Of a DNA stretch of 64,000 nt, positions 46,152-54,897 are shown in pieces. Origin of the DNA: an uncultured Gemmatimonadales bacterium (GTDB taxonomy: Bacteria; Gemmatimonadota; Gemmatimonadetes; Gemmatimonadales; GWC2-71-9). The notes beneath the pieces were generated by a model. That model worked only from the letters and a program-made list of their open reading frames with translations, was not told the origin of the DNA and did not search any database. Position numbers and translations under genes: made by a program. Position 1 is the first letter of the stretch, and every line of letters starts with the position of its first letter. The stretch covers positions 608,001 to 672,000 of the forward strand of contig CAWCFX010000004.1 of assembly GCA_963795085.1 (NCBI GenBank), written 5' to 3'.

Positions 46152-47108
46152 TTACTCGGAGGGCACCTCCTCCTCGCTCAGGGCGTTGAGCAGCCGGGCC
46201 AGCCGGAGGTCGCGGGCCGCGCGCAACTGGGGAATCTGGGCCCCGTAGGTTTTCTCGATTGCCCGGGTCAGCCGGTGCTGGTCTTCGGAGCTGAGCTGGG
46301 TCCATCCGGCGAGGTGTTCCCAGCGGGCGGCATTGATACTGATGAGCCGGGCCAGCATGCCGGCTTCGTCCTCGTTCGGCCCCAGCAAGTTCGTAAGATG
46401 CGGGCCGGCCGCCGCCCAGCCCAACGCGGGGCCCATCTCCAGGACGGTATCCACGTCCACGATGTCCACCACGCCTTCCAGCACCAGGTGGATACACTCC
46501 CGCCAGACCGCCGCCGAAATCCGGCCGGCCACACTGCCGTCAATCTCCTTCTTCAGAATGACCGGCACCCGGCCGAGGCCGGTCAGCCAGAAACGAACGT
46601 CCTCGACGCAGTCGGAATCGGTGAGTGGGCTGGGGACAATCTCGACCGCCGGCAGCAGTTCGACTGGCTTGAGCGAATGGAGCACCAGCATTCGGTCGGG
46701 CCGGCGCAGCCGGCCGCAGAGGTTGCTGGGGAGAAGGTTCTGGGTGTTGCTGGTGATGACCGCCTTGAGGCGGCAGACTTGTTCGACCTGCTCGAGGACC
46801 CGCTGTTTCGCACCCAGGTCGTCAGTGGTGGCCTCGATGATCCAGTCGGCTTCGGTCACGGCATGGAGCAGGCTGCGGCCCAGGCGAAGCTCACTCAGCC
46901 CGACCGCGGTGGTGGCTTCGTCGGCATGGCCCATGGCGGCCAGCGAATGGGTACGCCGACCGATGGTGGCCTGGGCCCGTTGCAGCTGCCCGGTGTTGGT
47001 GTCGTAGATGGTCACGGACCAGCCCCGGGAGACGGCCAGCGCTGCCCACCCGCAACCGACGTCTCCGGCACCGAGAATTGCGACCCTGGGGGGAACGAGA
47101 TCAGGCAT
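46152..47108 (-). CDS. 3-hydroxyacyl-CoA dehydrogenase family protein (carnitine/gulonate dehydrogenase-like)
   Basis: VAILGAGDVGCGWA, IIEA, SNT, KEIDG, AAGPH. Confidence 0.85.
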   Translation of the reverse strand: MPDLVPPRVAILGAGDVGCGWAALAVSRGWSVTIYDTNTGQLQRAQATIGRRTHSLAAMGHADEATTAVGLSELRLGRSLLHAVTEADWIIEATTDDLGAKQRVLEQVEQVCRLKAVITSNTQNLLPSNLCGRLRRPDRMLVLHSLKPVELLPAVEIVPSPLTDSDCVEDVRFWLTGLGRVPVILKKEIDGSVAGRISAAVWRECIHLVLEGVVDIVDVDTVLEMGPALGWAAAGPHLTNLLGPNEDEAGMLARLISINAARWEHLAGWTQLSSEDQHRLTRAIEKTYGAQIPQLRAARDLRLARLLNALSEEEVPSE

Positions 47109-47204
47109 GAGTGGGTACACGATAACGAAAAGCCCGGCGGGAGTCCATTGAACGGCGGCACCCATGCCGCAGCCGGTTCCGGGGCCGGGTAGATTGAGGA
47201 CCTG

Positions 47205-48068
47205 ATGACGCGCACCCTGGTTTTCCGCCTGGGGGGACTGGTGGCCGGCCTGGGCCTTTTGCTGGGCCGGGTACCGGCCCTGTCCGGCCAGGCGCCGGCT
47301 CCAGCCCCGTCGCCGGTGGCGGTCGAACGCCGCCTGGCGGAACGCCTGGGGCTGGCCATCGGTGACGCGGTGGCGCTCGGCACCCATCCCGATTCAATAG
47401 GTCACGCCGGGGTGGTAGCCGCGATCTACGAGCCGGCACCCGATCCCGCTTCAATTACCCGGCGGGAACTGGGTGTGCGCATGCACCTCCCGGATCTGGC
47501 GGCGATGCTCCGGGTGCCGGACCGGGTGGACCGCCTCGGCGTTCGGCTGCGGCCCGGTGTGGATCCGGATAGCGCCGCGGCCCGGCTCAACCAGCTGGCC
47601 TTCGGGTTCCGGGCCCATTCCTCCCGGGCGATTGCCGCCGGGTCTTCCCAGACCTTCCGGGTGGTGAGCCGGTTTCACCGGGCGATTGCCGTCATTTCCA
47701 TTGTGGCCAGCGCGGTGTTCCTGCTCTGCATCATGCTGCTCAAGGTGGAGGAGCGCCGGCGTGATGCCGCTCTCATGCGGTTGATTGGCGTCCGCCGCCG
47801 GGTCATCTTCGGCGCACTGCTCCTGGAAGCGGTCGCCGTGGCGCTAATCGGCTCCGCGGCAGGGGTACTGCTGGCGGCAGCGGCCGGCGCGGTCACCAAC
47901 CTGTATTACCAGCGGCTCTTCGACACCGCATTGATTTTCTCCCGGATTACCGCCGACATCGTCCTTTTCAGCGTGGCGCTTTCCCTCCTGCTCGGCGTGG
48001 GCGCCGGGGCGCTGGCTGCCACCCGGTTGATCCGGACTCCACCCCTGGTGCTGTGGGGCCGGGGATGA
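47205..48068 (+). CDS. MacB/FtsX-type ABC permease, C-terminal half with signal-peptide-like N-terminus
   Basis: LAERLGLAIGD, VEERRRDAALMRLIG, three C-terminal TMs. Confidence 0.82.
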   Translation: MTRTLVFRLGGLVAGLGLLLGRVPALSGQAPAPAPSPVAVERRLAERLGLAIGDAVALGTHPDSIGHAGVVAAIYEPAPDPASITRRELGVRMHLPDLAAMLRVPDRVDRLGVRLRPGVDPDSAAARLNQLAFGFRAHSSRAIAAGSSQTFRVVSRFHRAIAVISIVASAVFLLCIMLLKVEERRRDAALMRLIGVRRRVIFGALLLEAVAVALIGSAAGVLLAAAAGAVTNLYYQRLFDTALIFSRITADIVLFSVALSLLLGVGAGALAATRLIRTPPLVLWGRG

Positions 48069-49246
48069 GCGCGATCCGGAACCTGCGGCGGCATCCGCTC
48101 CGCACCGCCCTGGCGGTGCTCGGACTGGCGGTCAGTTCGGCCATGCTGCTCGACATGATCCTGCTCTCCGGCGGACTGGAGCGTTCCTTCGAACAGCTCC
48201 TCCTGAACCGGGGATACCAGGTCCGCATCAGTCCCAAAGGGACGCTTCCGTTCGACTCCGATGCCAGCATCGCCGGCGCCGGTCGCCTGCTGGATTCGCT
48301 CCGCGCGGTGCCCGGCGTCGCGGCGGTGGCGCCCGTCCTGGGAGCCTCGCTGCACGGCCGCCGGGGCGATTCACTACTCACGCTGGTCGGCTATGGTATC
48401 GATCCGGCCAACCAGGCGATGTACCAGGTGGAGGCGGGCCGCGACCTCGATCCCCGCGACACGGCGGGAATCCTCCTCAGCCTCCCCGCCCAGCGGGACC
48501 TGGGGATCACCATGGGCGACAGTATTACGGTGGCGGGGGCCCTCGACCCCCAGATGGCGCGGGCCGGACTGGAACGTACCATGGTGGTCAGAGGACTGGT
48601 CCGCTGGCTCTATGATCCGGAGGGACAACCGTCGGTGGGCACCGTGCTTTCCGTCGCCCAGCGGCTGCGGGGACCGGGCGGCGCGGACCGGGTGTCGTTC
48701 ATCGCGGTGCGGGTGGCGGATGGCACCGAGGTCTCCGCCCTGACGAACCGGCTGCGGGCGAGGTGGCCGCTGCTCGAGGTCAACAGCGTGGGCGACCTGG
48801 TCGCGCACTTCCGGACCCGCATGGTCTATTTCCACCAGCTCGCGTTCATCCTGGGCAGCATCAGCCTGGTGGTGACCCTGCTCCTGGTCGCCACCCTCCT
48901 GACGATCACCGTCAACGAGCGGCGGGGCGAGATCGCCACGCTCCGCGCCATCGGGGTGGGACGGATGCATATCGTGCGGGACGTCATGCTGGAGGGACTG
49001 GCCCTGACCGTCATCGGCGGCCTGGCCGGGGTGGCGCTCGGCCTGGTGACGGCCCGGTACCTGGACATCATCCTCACTTCCTTTCCCGGGCTGCCGGCGT
49101 CCATATCGTTTTTCGTGCCGCGGACCCGGGGCCTCGTGACGGCTGGCATCGTCCTACTCCTGAGCGGCACGCTGGCGGGTGCCTATCCGGCGTGGCTCGC
49201 CGCCAGCGCACCCATCGCTGAAGCCCTGCGCACGGAGGCGGCATGA
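48065..49246 (+). CDS. MacB/FtsX-type ABC permease (complete)
   Basis: NLRRHPLRTAL, VNERRGEIATLRAIG, YPAWLAA. Confidence 0.92.
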   Translation: MSAIRNLRRHPLRTALAVLGLAVSSAMLLDMILLSGGLERSFEQLLLNRGYQVRISPKGTLPFDSDASIAGAGRLLDSLRAVPGVAAVAPVLGASLHGRRGDSLLTLVGYGIDPANQAMYQVEAGRDLDPRDTAGILLSLPAQRDLGITMGDSITVAGALDPQMARAGLERTMVVRGLVRWLYDPEGQPSVGTVLSVAQRLRGPGGADRVSFIAVRVADGTEVSALTNRLRARWPLLEVNSVGDLVAHFRTRMVYFHQLAFILGSISLVVTLLLVATLLTITVNERRGEIATLRAIGVGRMHIVRDVMLEGLALTVIGGLAGVALGLVTARYLDIILTSFPGLPASISFFVPRTRGLVTAGIVLLLSGTLAGAYPAWLAASAPIAEALRTEAA

Positions 49247-49959
49247 CGAACGGCCTGGGCGCCGGGGGGCCAGGGGGCCGGGCAGTCGTGCTGCGGGCGG
49301 TGGATGTCCGAAAGGACTACCCGATGAACGGGGAGCAGGTGCATGCCGTGCGCGGGGTCTCGCTTGAAATAGAAACGGGCAGCCATACCGCCATCGTGGG
49401 GCCATCCGGCTGCGGCAAGTCCACCCTGCTGCACCTGCTCGGTGGCATTGACACTCCCAGTGCCGGGTTGGTGGAGATTCTCGGCACTTCGTTGTCACAG
49501 CTGACCAGCAGCCAGCTGACCCGGCTGCGCCTGCTCCGGCTGGGATTCATTTTCCAGCGGTTTCACCTGCTCCCGGTGCTCAGCGCGCGGGAAAACATCG
49601 AGTTGCCCCTGGCCGAGGCGGGGGTGCCGGGGCGGGAGCGGCGGGCCCGGGCTCTGGAGCTGCTGCGGTACGTGGGCCTCGGCGCGCGCGCCGACCACCG
49701 GGCGACCCAGCTCTCCGGCGGAGAGATGCAGCGGGTGGCCATCGCCCGCGCGATGGCGAACCGCCCCGCCATACTCCTCGCCGACGAACCCACCGGCGAA
49801 CTGGATGCCCGCACCGGCCGGGAGATTCTCGATCTCTTCCGCCGGCTCAACCAGGACGGCACCACGCTGGTCGTGGTCACCCACGACGAGCACCTGGCCG
49901 CCGAGGCCGGACAGCGCATCCATATGCTGGACGGCCGCATCGTGCCGGCGGAGCGGTAG
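49243..49959 (+). CDS. ABC ATP-binding protein (LolD/MacB-like)
   Basis: GPSGCGKST, LSGGEMQRV, LLADEPTG, VTHD. Confidence 0.96.
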   Translation: MTNGLGAGGPGGRAVVLRAVDVRKDYPMNGEQVHAVRGVSLEIETGSHTAIVGPSGCGKSTLLHLLGGIDTPSAGLVEILGTSLSQLTSSQLTRLRLLRLGFIFQRFHLLPVLSARENIELPLAEAGVPGRERRARALELLRYVGLGARADHRATQLSGGEMQRVAIARAMANRPAILLADEPTGELDARTGREILDLFRRLNQDGTTLVVVTHDEHLAAEAGQRIHMLDGRIVPAER

Positions 49960-49963
49960 GGGC

Positions 49964-51394
49964 ATGCTGTTCACCCTGGCATTCCGGCCGCTGCTGGTGC
50001 GGCGGGGACGATCGCTCTTCCTGCTCACCGGCTATGCGCTCGGCGTCGGTGTCATGATCGTGCTCCTGTCCGTGGGCGAGGCCATGCTGGACCAGTCGCG
50101 GGACGTGTCGCTGGTGGGCGGCGGCGAGGTGACCGTGCTTCCCGAGGGTATCGACATCGAGGCGTTGCGCACCGGCGGGCTGTCGGGGCTGTTCTTTACG
50201 GTGGACCGGGCCCGGTACGTAACCCGCCAGGCGCTGGGCGGGCCCCGTTATGCGGGCATGGTGGAAGCCGTCTCGCCCTCCCTCGAGCACAAGCTGATAT
50301 ACCTGGCGCACGGGCCGGATACCGTGGCGGTCCAGGCGGGCGCCGAGGTTCCCAGCCGCGCGGCTGCGGTGGGGGCGGGCCTCCGGGTCCTCCTGGGAGA
50401 ATGGGACGACACGCCCCGAGACTCGGCCTATATCGCGCCCACTGCGCAGCAGCTCTACGACGAGATCGACCGGTTCCACCTGCCCCAGACCGCCGACTCG
50501 AGTTGGGGGGAGTGGCACTACTTCAACGTCGTCACCGGTCCGGATGAGTGGTGGTATATCAGCTTCCTGGTGGGAGGCCTGGTCCCGGACGGCCGCTGGG
50601 GTGGCCAGGTGATTATCACCCACCGGCGGCCGGATGGCCGGTATGAGAAACTGGAGCAGGCGGTGCCCGCGGCGGCGGTCCGGTTCGATACCGCGGCGGC
50701 TGGCCTGGTCCTGGGGGCGAACCGGGTGGAGCAGCGCCAGGGGAAGTACACGGTGACCATCCGGCTCCCCTCGCAGCGGCTCAGCATGGACCTGCAGATT
50801 CGCCCGGCGCCTTTCCATTACTTCCCGCCCGTGCAGTTGCGGGAAGGGGAGTTTACCTCCGGGTACGCCGTCGCCGCCGTGCGAGGGACCGCGGAGGGAG
50901 AGATCTGCCTCGACCAGTGCCGGCCGGTGTCCAACGCGCCAGCCTATCACGATCACAACTGGGGCGTCTGGAGGGGCGTCTCCTGGGAGTGGGGCGCGGC
51001 GGCGGGTCCGCGTCTGAGTTTCCTGTACGGCCAGGTCCAGGCCCCCGACAGCGCTACCGCGCCGGAGCCCTTCTTCTTTGCGCTGCTGGATTCCATGGGC
51101 GTGCGGCAGGTGCTGACCTCGCGCTCCATTCGCTTCGAGGGAGACTTGCCGGTGGCGACCGGCGGACCGGCAACGGCACCGGGGCGATTCGAGTTCGTGG
51201 CGGGGCGGGGCGCGGACAGTGTGCGGGTGCGAGTCCAGGTGCGGGAGGCGGCGGGGACCCGGATGGCGTCAGCCGGATTCGAGCGCTATTTCCTGCAGAT
51301 GCGGGGAAGCTTTCTTCTGACCGGGGTGATCGGGGGAGAGCCGATCCGGGAGGAAGGGACAGGCTTCTTCGAAACCTGGCGGCGGCCGCCCTGA
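49964..51394 (+). CDS. Fusion: MacB-type permease N-terminal half + AttH/CrtC-like (double lipocalin) domain
   Basis: N-terminal RRGRSLFLLTGYALGVGV TM; then WGEWHYFN, AYHDHNWG, WEWG, GFFE. Confidence 0.75.
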   Translation: MLFTLAFRPLLVRRGRSLFLLTGYALGVGVMIVLLSVGEAMLDQSRDVSLVGGGEVTVLPEGIDIEALRTGGLSGLFFTVDRARYVTRQALGGPRYAGMVEAVSPSLEHKLIYLAHGPDTVAVQAGAEVPSRAAAVGAGLRVLLGEWDDTPRDSAYIAPTAQQLYDEIDRFHLPQTADSSWGEWHYFNVVTGPDEWWYISFLVGGLVPDGRWGGQVIITHRRPDGRYEKLEQAVPAAAVRFDTAAAGLVLGANRVEQRQGKYTVTIRLPSQRLSMDLQIRPAPFHYFPPVQLREGEFTSGYAVAAVRGTAEGEICLDQCRPVSNAPAYHDHNWGVWRGVSWEWGAAAGPRLSFLYGQVQAPDSATAPEPFFFALLDSMGVRQVLTSRSIRFEGDLPVATGGPATAPGRFEFVAGRGADSVRVRVQVREAAGTRMASAGFERYFLQMRGSFLLTGVIGGEPIREEGTGFFETWRRPP

Positions 51395-51932: not shown

Positions 51933-52035
51933 GATTGGATCCGGATAGAGGAAGCTGAAAAATAGCCGCTTGGTTGCGCCCCGACCGAATTGCGCCGATC
52001 TTCCTTGGCGGAACGCATCCCTTTCCTACGGATCC

Positions 52036-54897
52036 ATGGCCACACCCGAGATGCTGCAGGAGGCCCTGAGGGACAAGTACAGGGTCGAGAAGGAAATTGG
52101 CGCGGGCGGCATGGCGACCGTCTACCGCGCGCTGGATCTCAAGCACCAGCGGGCGGTGGCGATCAAGGTGCTCAGGCCGGAGCTGGCCGCCTCGCTGGGC
52201 ACCGAGCGGTTCCTGCGAGAAATCGAACTGGCGGCCCGGCTGCAACACCCGCATATCCTTCCGCTGTACGATTCCGGTTCCGCGGCCGGGATTCTCTATT
52301 ACGTGATGCCCTTCGTCGAGGGCGAATCGCTGCGCGACCGGCTCCAGCGGGAGAAAACCATTCCCCTGGAAACTGCGGTCCAGCTGACCCGCGAGGTGGC
52401 CAGCGCCCTGGCGTACGCCCACAGTCACGGGGTCGTCCACCGGGACATCAAACCGGAAAACATCATGCTCTCCGGGGGCCATGCCGTGGTAGCCGATTTT
52501 GGTATCGCGCGCGCCCTGGACGCGGCATCCGGTGGCGAGCGGCTGACCGGCATGGGGCTGTCTATCGGCACCCCGGCATACATGAGCCCGGAACAGGCGA
52601 CCGCGAGCGACGAGGTCGGTCCCCCCAGCGACGTGTATTCGCTCGCCTGCGTTCTCTACGAAACCCTGACGGGCCAGCAGGCATTCTCGGGGCCCTCGGT
52701 GCAGTCGGTGATCACCAAGAGTATCTCCGGCCCCCGGCCGCACGTGCGCGCCGTGGACAAATCGGTGCCCCAGGCGATCGACGCGGTCATCGTCCAGGCC
52801 CTGGCCCAGGACCCGGCCGAGCGGTTCCCCGGTGCCACCGAGTTCTCCGACAACCTCGACGCGGCGCTGCGGGGCGAGTTCAGGGGAGCCAAACGGTGGA
52901 CGCCGATCCTGGCCGGCCTGGTCACCGCCCTACTCTTTATCGGGGCGTTTCTCGGGTATCGTGCCTGGTCCACCCGGAGCCCGGTGCGCAGCGGCGCGGA
53001 GCTGATCGCGGTGCTGCCCTTTACGACGGCGGGGAGCGGGGTGGAGTTGCTGGGCGAGGGCATGGTCGACCTGCTCTCCACCAATCTCAACGCGGTCGGC
53101 GGGATCGCCACGGTGGATCCGCGAAGCGTGCTTTCCCGCTGGAAGAAGCAGGGCAGCACCGACCGCAACGCGGCGCTGGCCATCGCCCGCGCCCTGGAGG
53201 CCGGCTCGTTTCTTACCGGCAGCGTGGTCGCCGCGGGGCATACCGTGCGGATCAACGCCGAGCTGACCTCGGTAAACGGCGAGTCGCTGGCCAAGGCGCA
53301 GATCGACGGAACATCCGACAACCTGATCGGGCTGGTGGACAGCCTCAGCCTGGCCCTGCTCCGGGATATCTGGCGGTCGAACAAGCCGCTTCCCTCGCTG
53401 CACGTCGCCGCGATCACCACCAGCTCGGTGGACGCGATCCGCGCCTTCCTCTCCGGCGAGAAGGCCTATCGCGAAGCCCGCTGGGACAGCGCGACCGCGT
53501 TCTTCTCCCGTGCGGTAGAGCTGGACTCGACCTTCGCGCTGGCCAACTTCCGCCTCGCTCTCTCCTATGGATGGAACGGCGGCTGGCAAAGCGAGCGCTC
53601 CCGGAAGGCGACGGAGGCCGCCGTCCGCTTCGTGAACCGGTTGCCCGAGCGGGACCGGGCGCTGCTCACCGGGTACCGGCTGTTCACGCAGGCCAACCTC
53701 GCCGCGGTGGACAGCATGCGCCGATACCTCGCCCGGTATCCCGGCGATCCGGATGGCTGGTTCATCCTCGCCGACGCCCAGTACCACATGAATGCACTGG
53801 TGGGATTGTCGCCGGCTCAGCTCCGGGCACCGTTCGATTCGGTGCTGCGGCTGGATCCGACGCTGGTGCCCGCTTACTTCCACCCGGTCGAATCGGCGCT
53901 GATGCGGCGGGACAGCGCCCTGTTTACGGCCTATGTGGCTACCATCGATTCGGTGCTCGGCAAGGAAACGGCGGGGCAGTTCCGGCTGGCCGGACGGGCC
54001 GTCTGGGGGCCGGGACGCGACTCGGCCTACGCCGAGTTGACTACGGCGCAGGTTGGGCTGGCCGGTTCCGCTCTCATGTCGGAATATTACAGCCCCACCC
54101 CGGACCTCGGCGTGGTGAACCGGGAGATCACCCGGCAGTTCAGCCGCGGCATGGGCGGACCCCAGGCGGAAGCCCAGCTACTGATCAGCCGGGTGTCGGT
54201 CTACGTCGGGTTGGGACAATTGGGTAAGGCCCGGCAGCTCACCGACTCGTTGATGACGGTCAGCCGCGACTTCGGGTACTCGGCAATGCTGCAGCCGGTC
54301 TATGCCGGGCTAATTCCTGCCGATTCGGTTCGCCAGATAATTGCGGCGGTAGAGCAGGCCCCGCTCACCTATCCCCAGGTCGCGATGACCCGGGCGACGA
54401 TCGCGCTCAGCCAGAACGACGCGGCGGCGGCCAAACGGGTGCTGGATGAGGCCCTCAAGCAGACCGGGGAGATGTACAACGAGGAGTTCCGCGCCGTGCT
54501 CCGCGCATACCGGGGGTGGGCGGAGGTCGTGGCGGGCGATACGGTGGCGGGGATTCGCACCATCGAAACAGAGCTGGGGCGGTCCGGCAACATCGGCATC
54601 AGCTGGGCGACTTCGAACCTGCGGTTTCACTACGCCGGCATCCTGGCCTCCCGTCCCTCCACGCGGGACCAGGGCCTCCGGCTCCTGCAACATACCTTCA
54701 GCAGCGGCCCCGATATCATGTACCTGCCGCTGACTTTCCTGGTGGCGGGCCGTGCCCTGGAAGATGCCGGACGGCGGGCTGAGGCGGCCGAGGCATACGG
54801 CCAGTTCATCCGGCTGTGGAAGGACGCCGACGCTTCGCAACAGGGGCGAGTCCGGGAAGCGCGCGAGGGACTGCAGCGGGTGAGCGGGGAGAAGTGA
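52036..54897 (+). CDS. Membrane Ser/Thr protein kinase with TolB-N-like and TPR-like extracellular region
   Basis: GAGGMATV, VAIK, HRDIKPEN, DFG, GTPAYMSPE; TM; IAVLPF. Confidence 0.94.
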   Translation: MATPEMLQEALRDKYRVEKEIGAGGMATVYRALDLKHQRAVAIKVLRPELAASLGTERFLREIELAARLQHPHILPLYDSGSAAGILYYVMPFVEGESLRDRLQREKTIPLETAVQLTREVASALAYAHSHGVVHRDIKPENIMLSGGHAVVADFGIARALDAASGGERLTGMGLSIGTPAYMSPEQATASDEVGPPSDVYSLACVLYETLTGQQAFSGPSVQSVITKSISGPRPHVRAVDKSVPQAIDAVIVQALAQDPAERFPGATEFSDNLDAALRGEFRGAKRWTPILAGLVTALLFIGAFLGYRAWSTRSPVRSGAELIAVLPFTTAGSGVELLGEGMVDLLSTNLNAVGGIATVDPRSVLSRWKKQGSTDRNAALAIARALEAGSFLTGSVVAAGHTVRINAELTSVNGESLAKAQIDGTSDNLIGLVDSLSLALLRDIWRSNKPLPSLHVAAITTSSVDAIRAFLSGEKAYREARWDSATAFFSRAVELDSTFALANFRLALSYGWNGGWQSERSRKATEAAVRFVNRLPERDRALLTGYRLFTQANLAAVDSMRRYLARYPGDPDGWFILADAQYHMNALVGLSPAQLRAPFDSVLRLDPTLVPAYFHPVESALMRRDSALFTAYVATIDSVLGKETAGQFRLAGRAVWGPGRDSAYAELTTAQVGLAGSALMSEYYSPTPDLGVVNREITRQFSRGMGGPQAEAQLLISRVSVYVGLGQLGKARQLTDSLMTVSRDFGYSAMLQPVYAGLIPADSVRQIIAAVEQAPLTYPQVAMTRATIALSQNDAAAAKRVLDEALKQTGEMYNEEFRAVLRAYRGWAEVVAGDTVAGIRTIETELGRSGNIGISWATSNLRFHYAGILASRPSTRDQGLRLLQHTFSSGPDIMYLPLTFLVAGRALEDAGRRAEAAEAYGQFIRLWKDADASQQGRVREAREGLQRVSGEK

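Follow-up and report, generated by a model that had tools for sequence, protein, structure and literature searches.

Can a single permease unit of an ATP-binding cassette (ABC) transporter be built from two polypeptides, and why would one of them carry an additional β-barrel domain? These questions are raised by a locus in an uncultured Gemmatimonadales bacterium (assembly GCA_963795085.1), located in a 64,000-nucleotide stretch of contig CAWCFX010000004.1 (positions 608,001 to 672,000) that we call the window and to which all coordinates refer. Four plus-strand open reading frames (ORFs), labelled g1 to g4, follow one another in that order almost without spacers and form a tight operon. A preliminary description, made from the DNA letters, had proposed that the second permease subunit of this operon is divided between g4 and g1, and that its N-terminal piece is fused to an AttH/lipocalin-like domain. 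The observation of a split, fused permease is confirmed by the analyses described below, and the interpretation placed on it is largely supported by independent lines of computation.

Profile comparisons identify the four ORFs as one type VII (MacB/LolCDE-like) ABC system. Systems of this type are described as not carrying substrates across the membrane, and as relaying ATP-driven movements to periplasmic domains instead (PMC5985334, PMC12646458). The g2 protein matches the Pfam model MacB_PCD over profile positions 1-206 as well as FtsX, and the profile of its family matches MacB, LolF, LolC and LolE in the PDB with E values of 1.5e-16 to 1e-9. The g3 protein matches ABC_tran (E 7.7e-33), and its best NCBIfam models are LolD, MacB and FtsE, such that a cognate ATPase of the MacB/LolD/FtsE type is encoded in the same operon. 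Neither protein reaches the equivalog cut-offs for LolCDE (g2, 58.1 bits versus 362.45 for lolCE; g3, 230.4 versus 307.75 for LolD). The whole source genome (G000) has 14 FtsX-domain matches, four of them in a row on contig C3 (279.9-284.1 kb). This organism thus possesses a greatly expanded set of type VII ABC systems, and the g1-g4 cassette is not its housekeeping Lol system.

Whereas g2 is intact, the second permease unit does not combine its first transmembrane segment (TM1), a periplasmic Porter (or Porter/Sabre) domain and TM2-4 in a single polypeptide. The g4 protein holds TM1 together with the first periplasmic half, and the remainder is on g1, which lies upstream and is separated from g4 by g2 and g3. 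Residues 18-147 of g4 correspond to positions 2-110 of the 207-position MacB_PCD profile (E 0.039, 14.7 bits). This is the only Pfam match of g4, which hits no family in Pfam or NCBIfam at default thresholds; MacB_PCD is matched by 26 of 42 members of the g4 family, with a best E of 1.5e-6. Residues 32-130 of g1 correspond to positions 117-206 of the same profile (E 1.2e-3, 19.6 bits), and the two pieces thus account for complementary portions of the MacB periplasmic domain and, with TM1 on g4 and TM2-4 on g1, of the TM bundle, as had been anticipated. The g4 protein has one hydropathic TM segment at about residues 16-44, modelled by AlphaFold2 as a helix spanning residues 14-46, and its N-terminal 150 residues are well conserved, with many near-invariant positions.

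Profile-profile alignment with hhalign places both pieces on g2 (families of 42 sequences for g4 and 11 for g2, and an 11-row alignment for g1). Residues 1-133 of g4 align with residues 1-121 of g2 (Prob 93.3, E 2.6e-7), pairing RRGRSLFLLTG with RHPLRTALAVLG, GGEVTVLPEG with RGYQVRISPKG, and VEAVSP with VAAVAP. The string pairs on which the preliminary description had based its match of g4 residues ∼1-147 to TM1 and the first periplasmic part of g2 are thereby recovered. Residues 38-279 of g1 align with residues 140-387 of g2 (Prob 99.1, E 5.8e-19), beginning with VAVERRLAERLGLAIGD on ILLSLPAQRDLGITMGD. Together, the N-terminal part of g4 and g1 cover one permease unit except for ∼18 residues at the break, and the two are complementary halves. 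The Porter subdomain is described as two β-α-β motifs flanking a contiguous Sabre subdomain (PMC5985334). Profile coordinates suggest that the break falls inside Sabre, after a first hairpin that would correspond to g4 strands 110-116 and 119-125 of the AlphaFold2 model.

The g1 protein begins with a weakly hydrophobic leader and has three TM segments thereafter. Its residues 160-280 match Pfam FtsX (PF02687) with an E of 9.9e-16 and 58.3 bits against a cut-off of 25.5, and it is similar to g2 by BLASTP (E 5e-8). An alignment of 11 orthologues shows a hydrophobic, variable stretch of 25-50 residues at the N-terminus, after which conservation sets in sharply at (I/V)A(V/I)(E/D)RR/EA. We surveyed 61 g1 matches in 60 further loci, and found a hydrophobic run (at least 8 of 10 residues) just 5′ of the conserved start in 58 of the 61, often ending in A-x-A-Q. 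The distance from the upstream in-frame stop to the conserved start is at most 110 codons in 48 of the 61 matches (median 55), and therefore leaves no room for a hidden TM1 and half domain. Hydropathy, the FtsX match, the hhalign result and this survey agree with the earlier assignment to g1 of a signal-peptide-like leader followed by the second half and TM2-4. We infer that the leader is a Sec signal peptide, presumably cleaved, that stands in for TM1 as the export signal.

It could be argued instead that g1 is a self-sufficient short FtsX-type permease that has kept its leader as TM1 and reduced its periplasmic domain, with g4 serving as an accessory single-pass anchor of the AttH-like domain whose N-terminus is a permease relic. 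A hydrophobic N-terminal segment does precede the periplasmic part of g1, the loss of Sabre is reported to be tolerated in type VII permeases (PMC5985334), and the similarity between g4 and g2 is weak. Nonetheless, we consider this arrangement unlikely. The hydrophobic run of the g1 leader is short (about 10-13 residues), unconserved and often followed by the A-x-A-Q ending, and g1 is devoid of the N-terminal Porter β-α-β motif that the same review gives as common to all type VII members (PMC5985334). The conservation of the g4 N-terminus, and its recurrent match to the first half of MacB_PCD, likewise speak against a relic.

The predicted docking of the halves also bears on this choice. Co-folding of g1 (11-row alignment) with residues 1-175 of g4 (42-row alignment), in three runs with three controls, yields an interaction prediction score from aligned errors (ipSAE) of 0.64 (0.63-0.65 between runs) versus 0.00 for the best of the controls, although this score may reflect likeness to solved single-chain permeases. 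In calibration, the mark that the pair passes is reached by 116 of 157 solved complexes and by 2 of 215 mismatched pairs. The models contain about 461 contacts with at least 92% agreement between runs, and the predicted local distance difference test score (pLDDT) of the partner is at least 72. The contacts with the lowest predicted error are strand pairings between g1 111-114 and g4 102-105, between g1 91-95 and g4 125-129, and between g1 57 and g4 115. The interface is interdigitated: TM1 of g4 (20-44) packs against TM2-4 of g1, and residues 1-36 of g1 lie outside the interface, contrary to what a leader retained as TM1 would imply. The predicted assembly resembles one rebuilt periplasmic domain and a four-helix bundle. 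Hence, of the proposal that the second permease is made from two polypeptides, the complementarity of the halves stands as found, and their assembly stands as a prediction.

The remainder of g4 is an AttH-like domain. An AlphaFold2 model of g4 built from the 42-sequence alignment (mean pLDDT 88.4, predicted template modelling score 0.82) is all-β over residues 181-473 and consists of the two orthogonal lipocalin barrels that characterize the AttH-like superfamily. Foldseek matches the model to the decalin-forming Diels-Alderases Fsa2, Phm7 and CghA, to the putative AttH NE1406 (2ich), to kievitone hydratase and to 25-phosphosteroid lyase, with E values from 4e-13 to 5e-8. VIA-align gives Z scores of 22.4-24.4 for 14 PDB entries of these proteins at sequence identities of 8-15%, with the next entry at Z 8.1; for 2ich_B, for example, 287 residues align with a Z of 23.7 and a root mean square deviation of 3.6 Å. 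Look-up in a protein atlas leads, at scores of 0.94-0.96, to clusters of CrtC, Lipocalin_9, Svf1 and Diels-Alderases. Remote homology is also detectable in sequence, as hhalign aligns the g4 family with six AttH proteins from Gemmatimonadota over 308 columns (Prob 85.2, E 6.1e-6), placing WGEWHYF on TEWWYF, YHD on an invariant WMD, WEWG on WDWF and GFFET on GYVEL. Both the switch from permease to a domain bearing WGEWHYFN, YHDHNWG and WEW motifs and the AttH/lipocalin-like identity of that domain, as first described, are therefore upheld.

The barrel motifs W-x-E-W-H-Y-F, S-G-Y-x-V-P, Y-H-D-H-N-W-G, W-x-W-G, F-L-Q-M-R-G and G-F-F-E-T are nearly invariant in the family, and the near-invariant residues include W181, E183, W184, Y186, F187, S299, G300, Y301, Y328-W333, W341, W343, Q445 and E470. 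Within the run Y328-H329-D330-H331-N332-W333, D330 aligns with the invariant Asp of AttH in the hhalign comparison. CrtC is reported to need a conserved Tyr-x-Asp, and the catalytic residues of RgCrtC are H239, W241, Y266 and D268 (PMC4717167). AttH-like enzymes such as CrtC and kievitone hydratase are reported to hydrate isoprenoid double bonds, and one AttH-like protein to make hydroxylated glycerol dialkyl glycerol tetraethers (hydroxy-GDGTs; 10.1101/2025.10.20.683597). Eleven of the 42 family members match Pfam Tocopherol_cycl (PF14249) below threshold (best E 1.6e-4, 21.3 bits versus 26.6). In the four members with listed ranges, out of 17 scanned singly, this match spans 47-56 residues at about positions 292-355. 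No CrtC (PF07143) or tocopherol-cyclase (PF14249) paralogues were found in the whole genome from which the window derives.

A distant relative of the g4 barrel alone is encoded in another genome (G081) by a free 346-amino-acid ORF (L103:1100-2140), with 24% identity by tblastn and a match to profile positions 162-480 at an E of 1.7e-37. This ORF has no Pfam match, and there are no relatives of g1-g3 within 9 kb of it.

The split cassette is widely conserved. Among 8,000 scored candidates, 2,835 proteins are relatives of g4 at E ≤ 1e-3. Relatives that share its entire architecture are plentiful, and the best 120 are 472-539 amino acids long, with 56-74% identity and 94-100% coverage. The organism is a member of the Gemmatimonadota wherever it is named, and most of the source names given read “hypothetical protein”. 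At the same threshold, g4 has 498 matches in a library of 1.84 billion representatives, and 383 relatives were confirmed by scanning species-representative genomes. Among these 383, the 80 best loci are all labelled Gemmatimonadota (Gemmatimonadales, Gemmatimonadaceae, Longimicrobium) except for one “Acidimicrobiales” on a 3.3-kb contig and one “bacterium”. In a sample of the phylum, 40 of 128 genera and 111 of 301 genomes possess the cassette, nearly always in one full-length copy; G083 and G177, both unpublished, are among the genomes counted.

Gene order is preserved as well. All 10 loci retrieved from relatives, out of 12 relatives with a match, show g1-g2-g3-g4 in this order on a single strand. 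The same holds for 61 of 61 loci with at least 2.9 kb of sequence upstream of g4, including Longimicrobium (the other 19 of the 80 are too short), and for 3 of 3 loci from three further families, which makes 74 of 74 testable loci in all. The split is therefore not peculiar to this assembly. Strong g1 matches (E ≤ 1e-62) are present in exactly those 13 of 41 related genomes that carry g4, and the other 28, including the unpublished G018, give only generic FtsX hits (E ≥ 1.6e-10). Extra genes are inserted between g2 and g3 in loci L052, L057 and L081, and between g3 and g4 in L105 and L100. The g2-g3 insertions in L052:2708-4209 and L057:2510-3852 encode an extracytoplasmic function (ECF) sigma factor and an RskA-type anti-sigma factor (with zf-HC2 in L057), and these pairs hint at envelope-stress control. 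The insertion in L105:3760-5334, a locus from another family, encodes a 524-amino-acid protein of the endonuclease/exonuclease/phosphatase family.

A frameshift, a misassembly or a decaying gene might also give rise to an apparent split, and metagenome databases do hold run-on or frameshifted calls of this locus (P0153 and P0224, which join the ATPase to g4, and P0276, which joins g1 to g2). The pieces of the permease, however, are not adjacent, as g2 and g3 stand between them, and the same arrangement recurs at 40-74% identity in genes free of internal stops. Where g4 matches seemed to contain stops, at the two loci checked (L019 and L020), the alignment had continued beyond the genuine stop codon. 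These conservation data refute an artefactual origin, to which we assign next to no probability.

No fused g4-g1 or unsplit form was found among the best 150 of the 498 g4 representatives, and none of 10 representatives scanned because they are longer than expected or matched in several stretches contains FtsX. According to blastp, P0153 and P0224 are the frameshifted gene calls noted above, and P0170 has a β-lactamase domain behind a g4-like part. A fused form is also absent from 23 g1 relatives longer than 503 amino acids. The best of these, P0276, is the g1+g2 run-on; the rest, with the exception of P0277, bear FtsX and/or MacB_PCD Pfam labels, and identity to g1 is 24-43%.

The cassette is most readily understood beside the AttEFGH, Rv0986-Rv0988 and NE1404-NE1406 systems, each of which combines a LolD/FtsE-like ATPase, two FtsX/MacB permease units and an AttH-fold double barrel in one operon. 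AttH NE1406 is described as genomically linked to a LolD-like ABC system, an association resting on genome context (PMC2954199), and the mycobacterial counterpart, of the AttFGH/Rv0986-0987 kind, is called poorly classified (PMC7761784). The known pairing of AttH with FtsX-type ABC transporters, to which the preliminary description had appealed, is also found among relatives of the source organism. A true CrtC-domain protein is present in 6 of 151 sampled genomes, and in all four loci that we enlarged a g3-like ATPase lies within a few kb of a free, signal-peptide-bearing AttH, with a g2-like permease hit between them in two. In genome G021 (L113:3713-8480), an ATPase and an 840-amino-acid permease with two MacB_PCD and two FtsX domains accompany a free 389-amino-acid AttH (CrtC E 8e-45, Lipocalin_9 E 9e-37), and similar neighbourhoods occur in G058, G149 and G017 (loci L114-L116). 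This arrangement agrees with the AttFGH/Rv0986-0987 kind and with the NE1406 context. No match to g4 was found in the classical-form genomes G017, G021 and G058. Given the classical form in the same phylum, the cassette in the window is a version of a known pairing that has been rearranged, split and fused. It differs from the AttEFGH type in that a covalent fusion ties the barrel to the first piece of one permease unit, whereas AttH is free and secreted there; in that two permease units are spread over three polypeptides, one of them broken inside the periplasmic domain; in its order of C-half, intact unit, ATPase, and N-half with barrel; and in a barrel that scores below the CrtC and Lipocalin_9 models.

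Other type VII machines offer functional parallels. The cassette is like LolCDE in its proposed composition, a heterodimer of two different four-TM permease units with two copies of one ATPase, and in that lolCE and LolD are the best-scoring models for g2 and g3. It is unlike LolCDE in that its scores fall far below the equivalog cut-offs, it is present in only 111 of the 301 phylum genomes, and its acceptor would be tethered rather than free. LolCDE is reported to extract lipid moieties or acyl chains from the outer leaflet for transfer to LolA, a periplasmic acceptor bound to the periplasmic domain, and for YbbAP it has been proposed that hydrophobic molecules are extracted and pushed into TesA, a docked hydrolase (PMC12646458). 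YbbAP-TesA is thus a type VII machine with an enzyme-like periplasmic partner placed to receive hydrophobic molecules of the inner membrane (PMC12646458), although that system pairs a free SGNH hydrolase with a permease made of a single ten-TM chain, in contrast to the fused barrel and permease fragment described here. The barrel of g4 has its double-barrel fold in common (Z 22-24) with CrtC, kievitone hydratase, archaeal hydroxy-GDGT synthase, 25-phosphosteroid lyase and the Diels-Alderases, and its family has a conserved aromatic-x-Asp at the aligned position of the invariant WMD of AttH. The hydratases of this superfamily are reported to act on hydrophobic, mostly isoprenoid substrates (10.1101/2025.10.20.683597, PMC4717167); unlike g4, none of the AttH-like enzymes is described as fused to a transporter fragment. 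The available text of a 2018 review of the MacB family lists fused, homodimeric, heterodimeric and duplicated forms, and no split unit (PMC5985334). A search of literature full text for AttH with FtsX, MacB or type VII terms returned no description of such a fusion.

We propose that g1-g4 encode a single type VII machine in which the second permease unit is built from g4 and g1 and ATP drives the hand-over of a lipid to the tethered barrel, a reading to which we assign a probability of roughly 0.6. The machine would comprise two copies of g3, one intact g2 and a pseudo-single permease unit made from two polypeptides. The g4 protein would contribute TM1 and the first periplasmic half, and g1, exported by its Sec-type leader, the second half and TM2-4, such that the halves would co-fold into one Porter/Sabre domain and one four-helix bundle. 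As the barrel would hang from the break inside Sabre, it would sit atop the periplasmic domain. Binding and hydrolysis of ATP by g3 might then drive periplasmic movements, by analogy with LolCDE-LolA and YbbAP-TesA, through which g3(2)-g2-(g4+g1) would extract a membrane lipid, probably an isoprenoid, and push it into the tethered barrel to be bound or modified. Extraction and delivery into the barrel are proposed because of the behaviour of LolCDE and YbbAP and the existence of isoprenoid enzymes with the AttH fold. By the same analogies, the substrate is probably a hydrophobic, isoprenoid-type lipid. Because it is fused to a piece of the permease, the AttH-like domain probably works directly on the pump. 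Modification could take place at a C=C bond, by acid-catalysed addition or elimination, with Asp330 of the Y-H-D motif as the candidate acid. Stoichiometry, signal-peptide cleavage, substrate and chemistry are all matters that we infer.

If the halves do reassemble, it is also possible that the barrel is an effector switched mechanically by the ATPase cycle, much as EnvC, PcsB or RipC is by FtsEX, or that it is a passive lipid carrier toward the outer membrane. Mechanotransmission to a bound periplasmic partner is described as the rule in type VII systems (PMC12646458, PMC5985334), and the sigma/anti-sigma pairs lying between g2 and g3 in 2 of 80 loci offer a hint of envelope stress. Conversely, a near-invariant polar Y-H-D-H-N-W run in a barrel of an enzyme-rich superfamily suggests chemistry beyond carriage, and a tethered domain could not shuttle across the periplasm. 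We give an effector or carrier role a low probability, although the present results fit a barrel that is switched as well as one that is fed.

A more specific version of the lipid hand-over that we favour can be offered only tentatively. The cassette might be an ATP-powered “extract-and-modify” machine that takes an isoprenoid lipid, such as a carotenoid, hopanoid or quinone, out of the inner membrane and uses Asp330 to hydrate, cyclize or eliminate at a C=C bond. The fusion would then be a “Rosetta stone” indicating that free AttH proteins, among them those of the AttEFGH and Rv0986-0988 type, dock on the Sabre subdomain of their ABC partner, and circular permutation of an ancestral operon might account for the gene order. 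When this order is closed into a ring, it runs ATPase, N-half with barrel, C-half, intact unit. One can speculate that an ancestral operon encoding an ATPase, a permease with an inserted barrel and a second permease underwent tandem duplication followed by loss of the outer copies. No ancestor-like permease with an inserted barrel was found among the best 150 of the 498 g4 representatives or the 23 longer g1 relatives.

Several observations weigh against the proposal of a two-piece permease unit feeding a tethered barrel. The docking score may be the prediction model's memory of solved single-chain MacB and LolC, because the halves belong to a fold with solved single-chain structures; it would then report likeness and not binding. 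The half-domain matches of the window's own proteins to MacB_PCD (g4 14.7 bits, g1 19.6 bits) fall below the 27-bit gathering cut-off. Pairwise BLASTP between g4 and g2 gives nothing significant (best E 0.19, misaligned), and so the match seen by eye is undetectable pairwise and the relation is seen by profile methods alone. The g4-family profile finds nothing significant among PDB sequences, the best hit being TM1 of the MacB-like permease 5xu1_M (E 0.21). Pfam CrtC (PF07143) and Lipocalin_9 (PF17186) are not matched by g4 at E ≤ 10 or by any of the 42 family members at E ≤ 1; the barrel therefore belongs to a divergent branch of the AttH/CrtC superfamily. The correspondence of Y328 and D330 to Tyr266 and Asp268 of CrtC is suggested by the motif pattern and the AttH alignment rather than by a CrtC structure. 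In one locus on a 4,982-bp contig (L098:72-2030), a CitMHS/Na-sulfate-symporter-like transporter and a response regulator precede g3-g4 in place of g1-g2. Finally, a search for conserved neighbours as a clue to the pathway was negative: the ORFs that flank the cassette in the window each recur in 23 of 80 loci or fewer, and the genomic context therefore gives no clue to the substrate.

AttH proteins adjoin FtsX-type ABC transporters in many bacteria, yet no mechanism has linked the two. The covalent joining of the barrel to a periplasmic fragment of the permease is strong comparative evidence for direct physical coupling, and points to the place of docking. The cassette also represents a new organization of the type VII permease, in which a unit is broken inside its periplasmic domain and a putative signal peptide replaces TM1 on the second fragment. 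The family concerned is large, unannotated and conserved in Gemmatimonadota.

Table 1. Positions of the four ORFs of the cassette and their parts within the window.
Feature	Position	Strand	Description	Basis
g1	47205..48068	+	287 amino acids; C-terminal piece of split permease unit	ORF, Pfam, hhalign
g1 leader, residues 1-37	47205..47315	+	Signal-peptide-like, poorly conserved	Weak hydrophobic window at residues 5-23
g1 periplasmic part, residues 38-150	47316..47654	+	Second half of MacB-type periplasmic domain: putatively rest of Sabre and C-terminal Porter β-α-β	Pfam, hhalign, co-fold strand pairing
g1 TM2-TM4 (FtsX C-terminal domain)	47670..48044	+		Three hydrophobic segments, Pfam FtsX
g2	48065..49246	+	Intact four-TM MacB/LolC-type permease	Pfam, PDB profile search
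g3	49243..49959	+	ABC ATPase of LolD/MacB/FtsE type; overlaps end of g2 by 4 bp	Pfam, NCBIfam
g4	49964..51394	+	476 amino acids; N-terminal piece of split unit and AttH-like domain; starts 4 bp past g3 stop	
g4 residues 1-147	49964..50404	+	TM1 and first half of MacB-type periplasmic domain: putatively N-terminal Porter β-α-β and first Sabre hairpin	
g4 residues about 170-476	50471..51391	+	AttH/CrtC-like double lipocalin-type β-barrel	AlphaFold2, Foldseek, VIA-align, hhalign, protein-atlas look-up

All four ORFs lie at the positions given in the preliminary description, and their individual boundaries merit brief comment. The ATG start of g2 at 48065 overlaps the stop codon of g1 as ATGA, with an alternative GTG start at 48053. 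The ORF of g4 opens at 49805, a start that we rejected because all 10 orthologues examined begin at a Met equivalent to 49964. On the opposite strand, the upstream flank holds a 3-hydroxyacyl-CoA dehydrogenase-like gene whose longest ORF (46152-47387, minus strand) overlaps the start of g1. Its Pfam domains appear only from residue 88 onwards; were translation to begin later, near 47165, the divergent genes would be only ∼40 bp apart. Directly downstream of the cassette lies a gene for a 975-amino-acid Ser/Thr protein kinase with tetratricopeptide repeats (51970-54897, plus strand), which recurs in 14 of 80 related loci.

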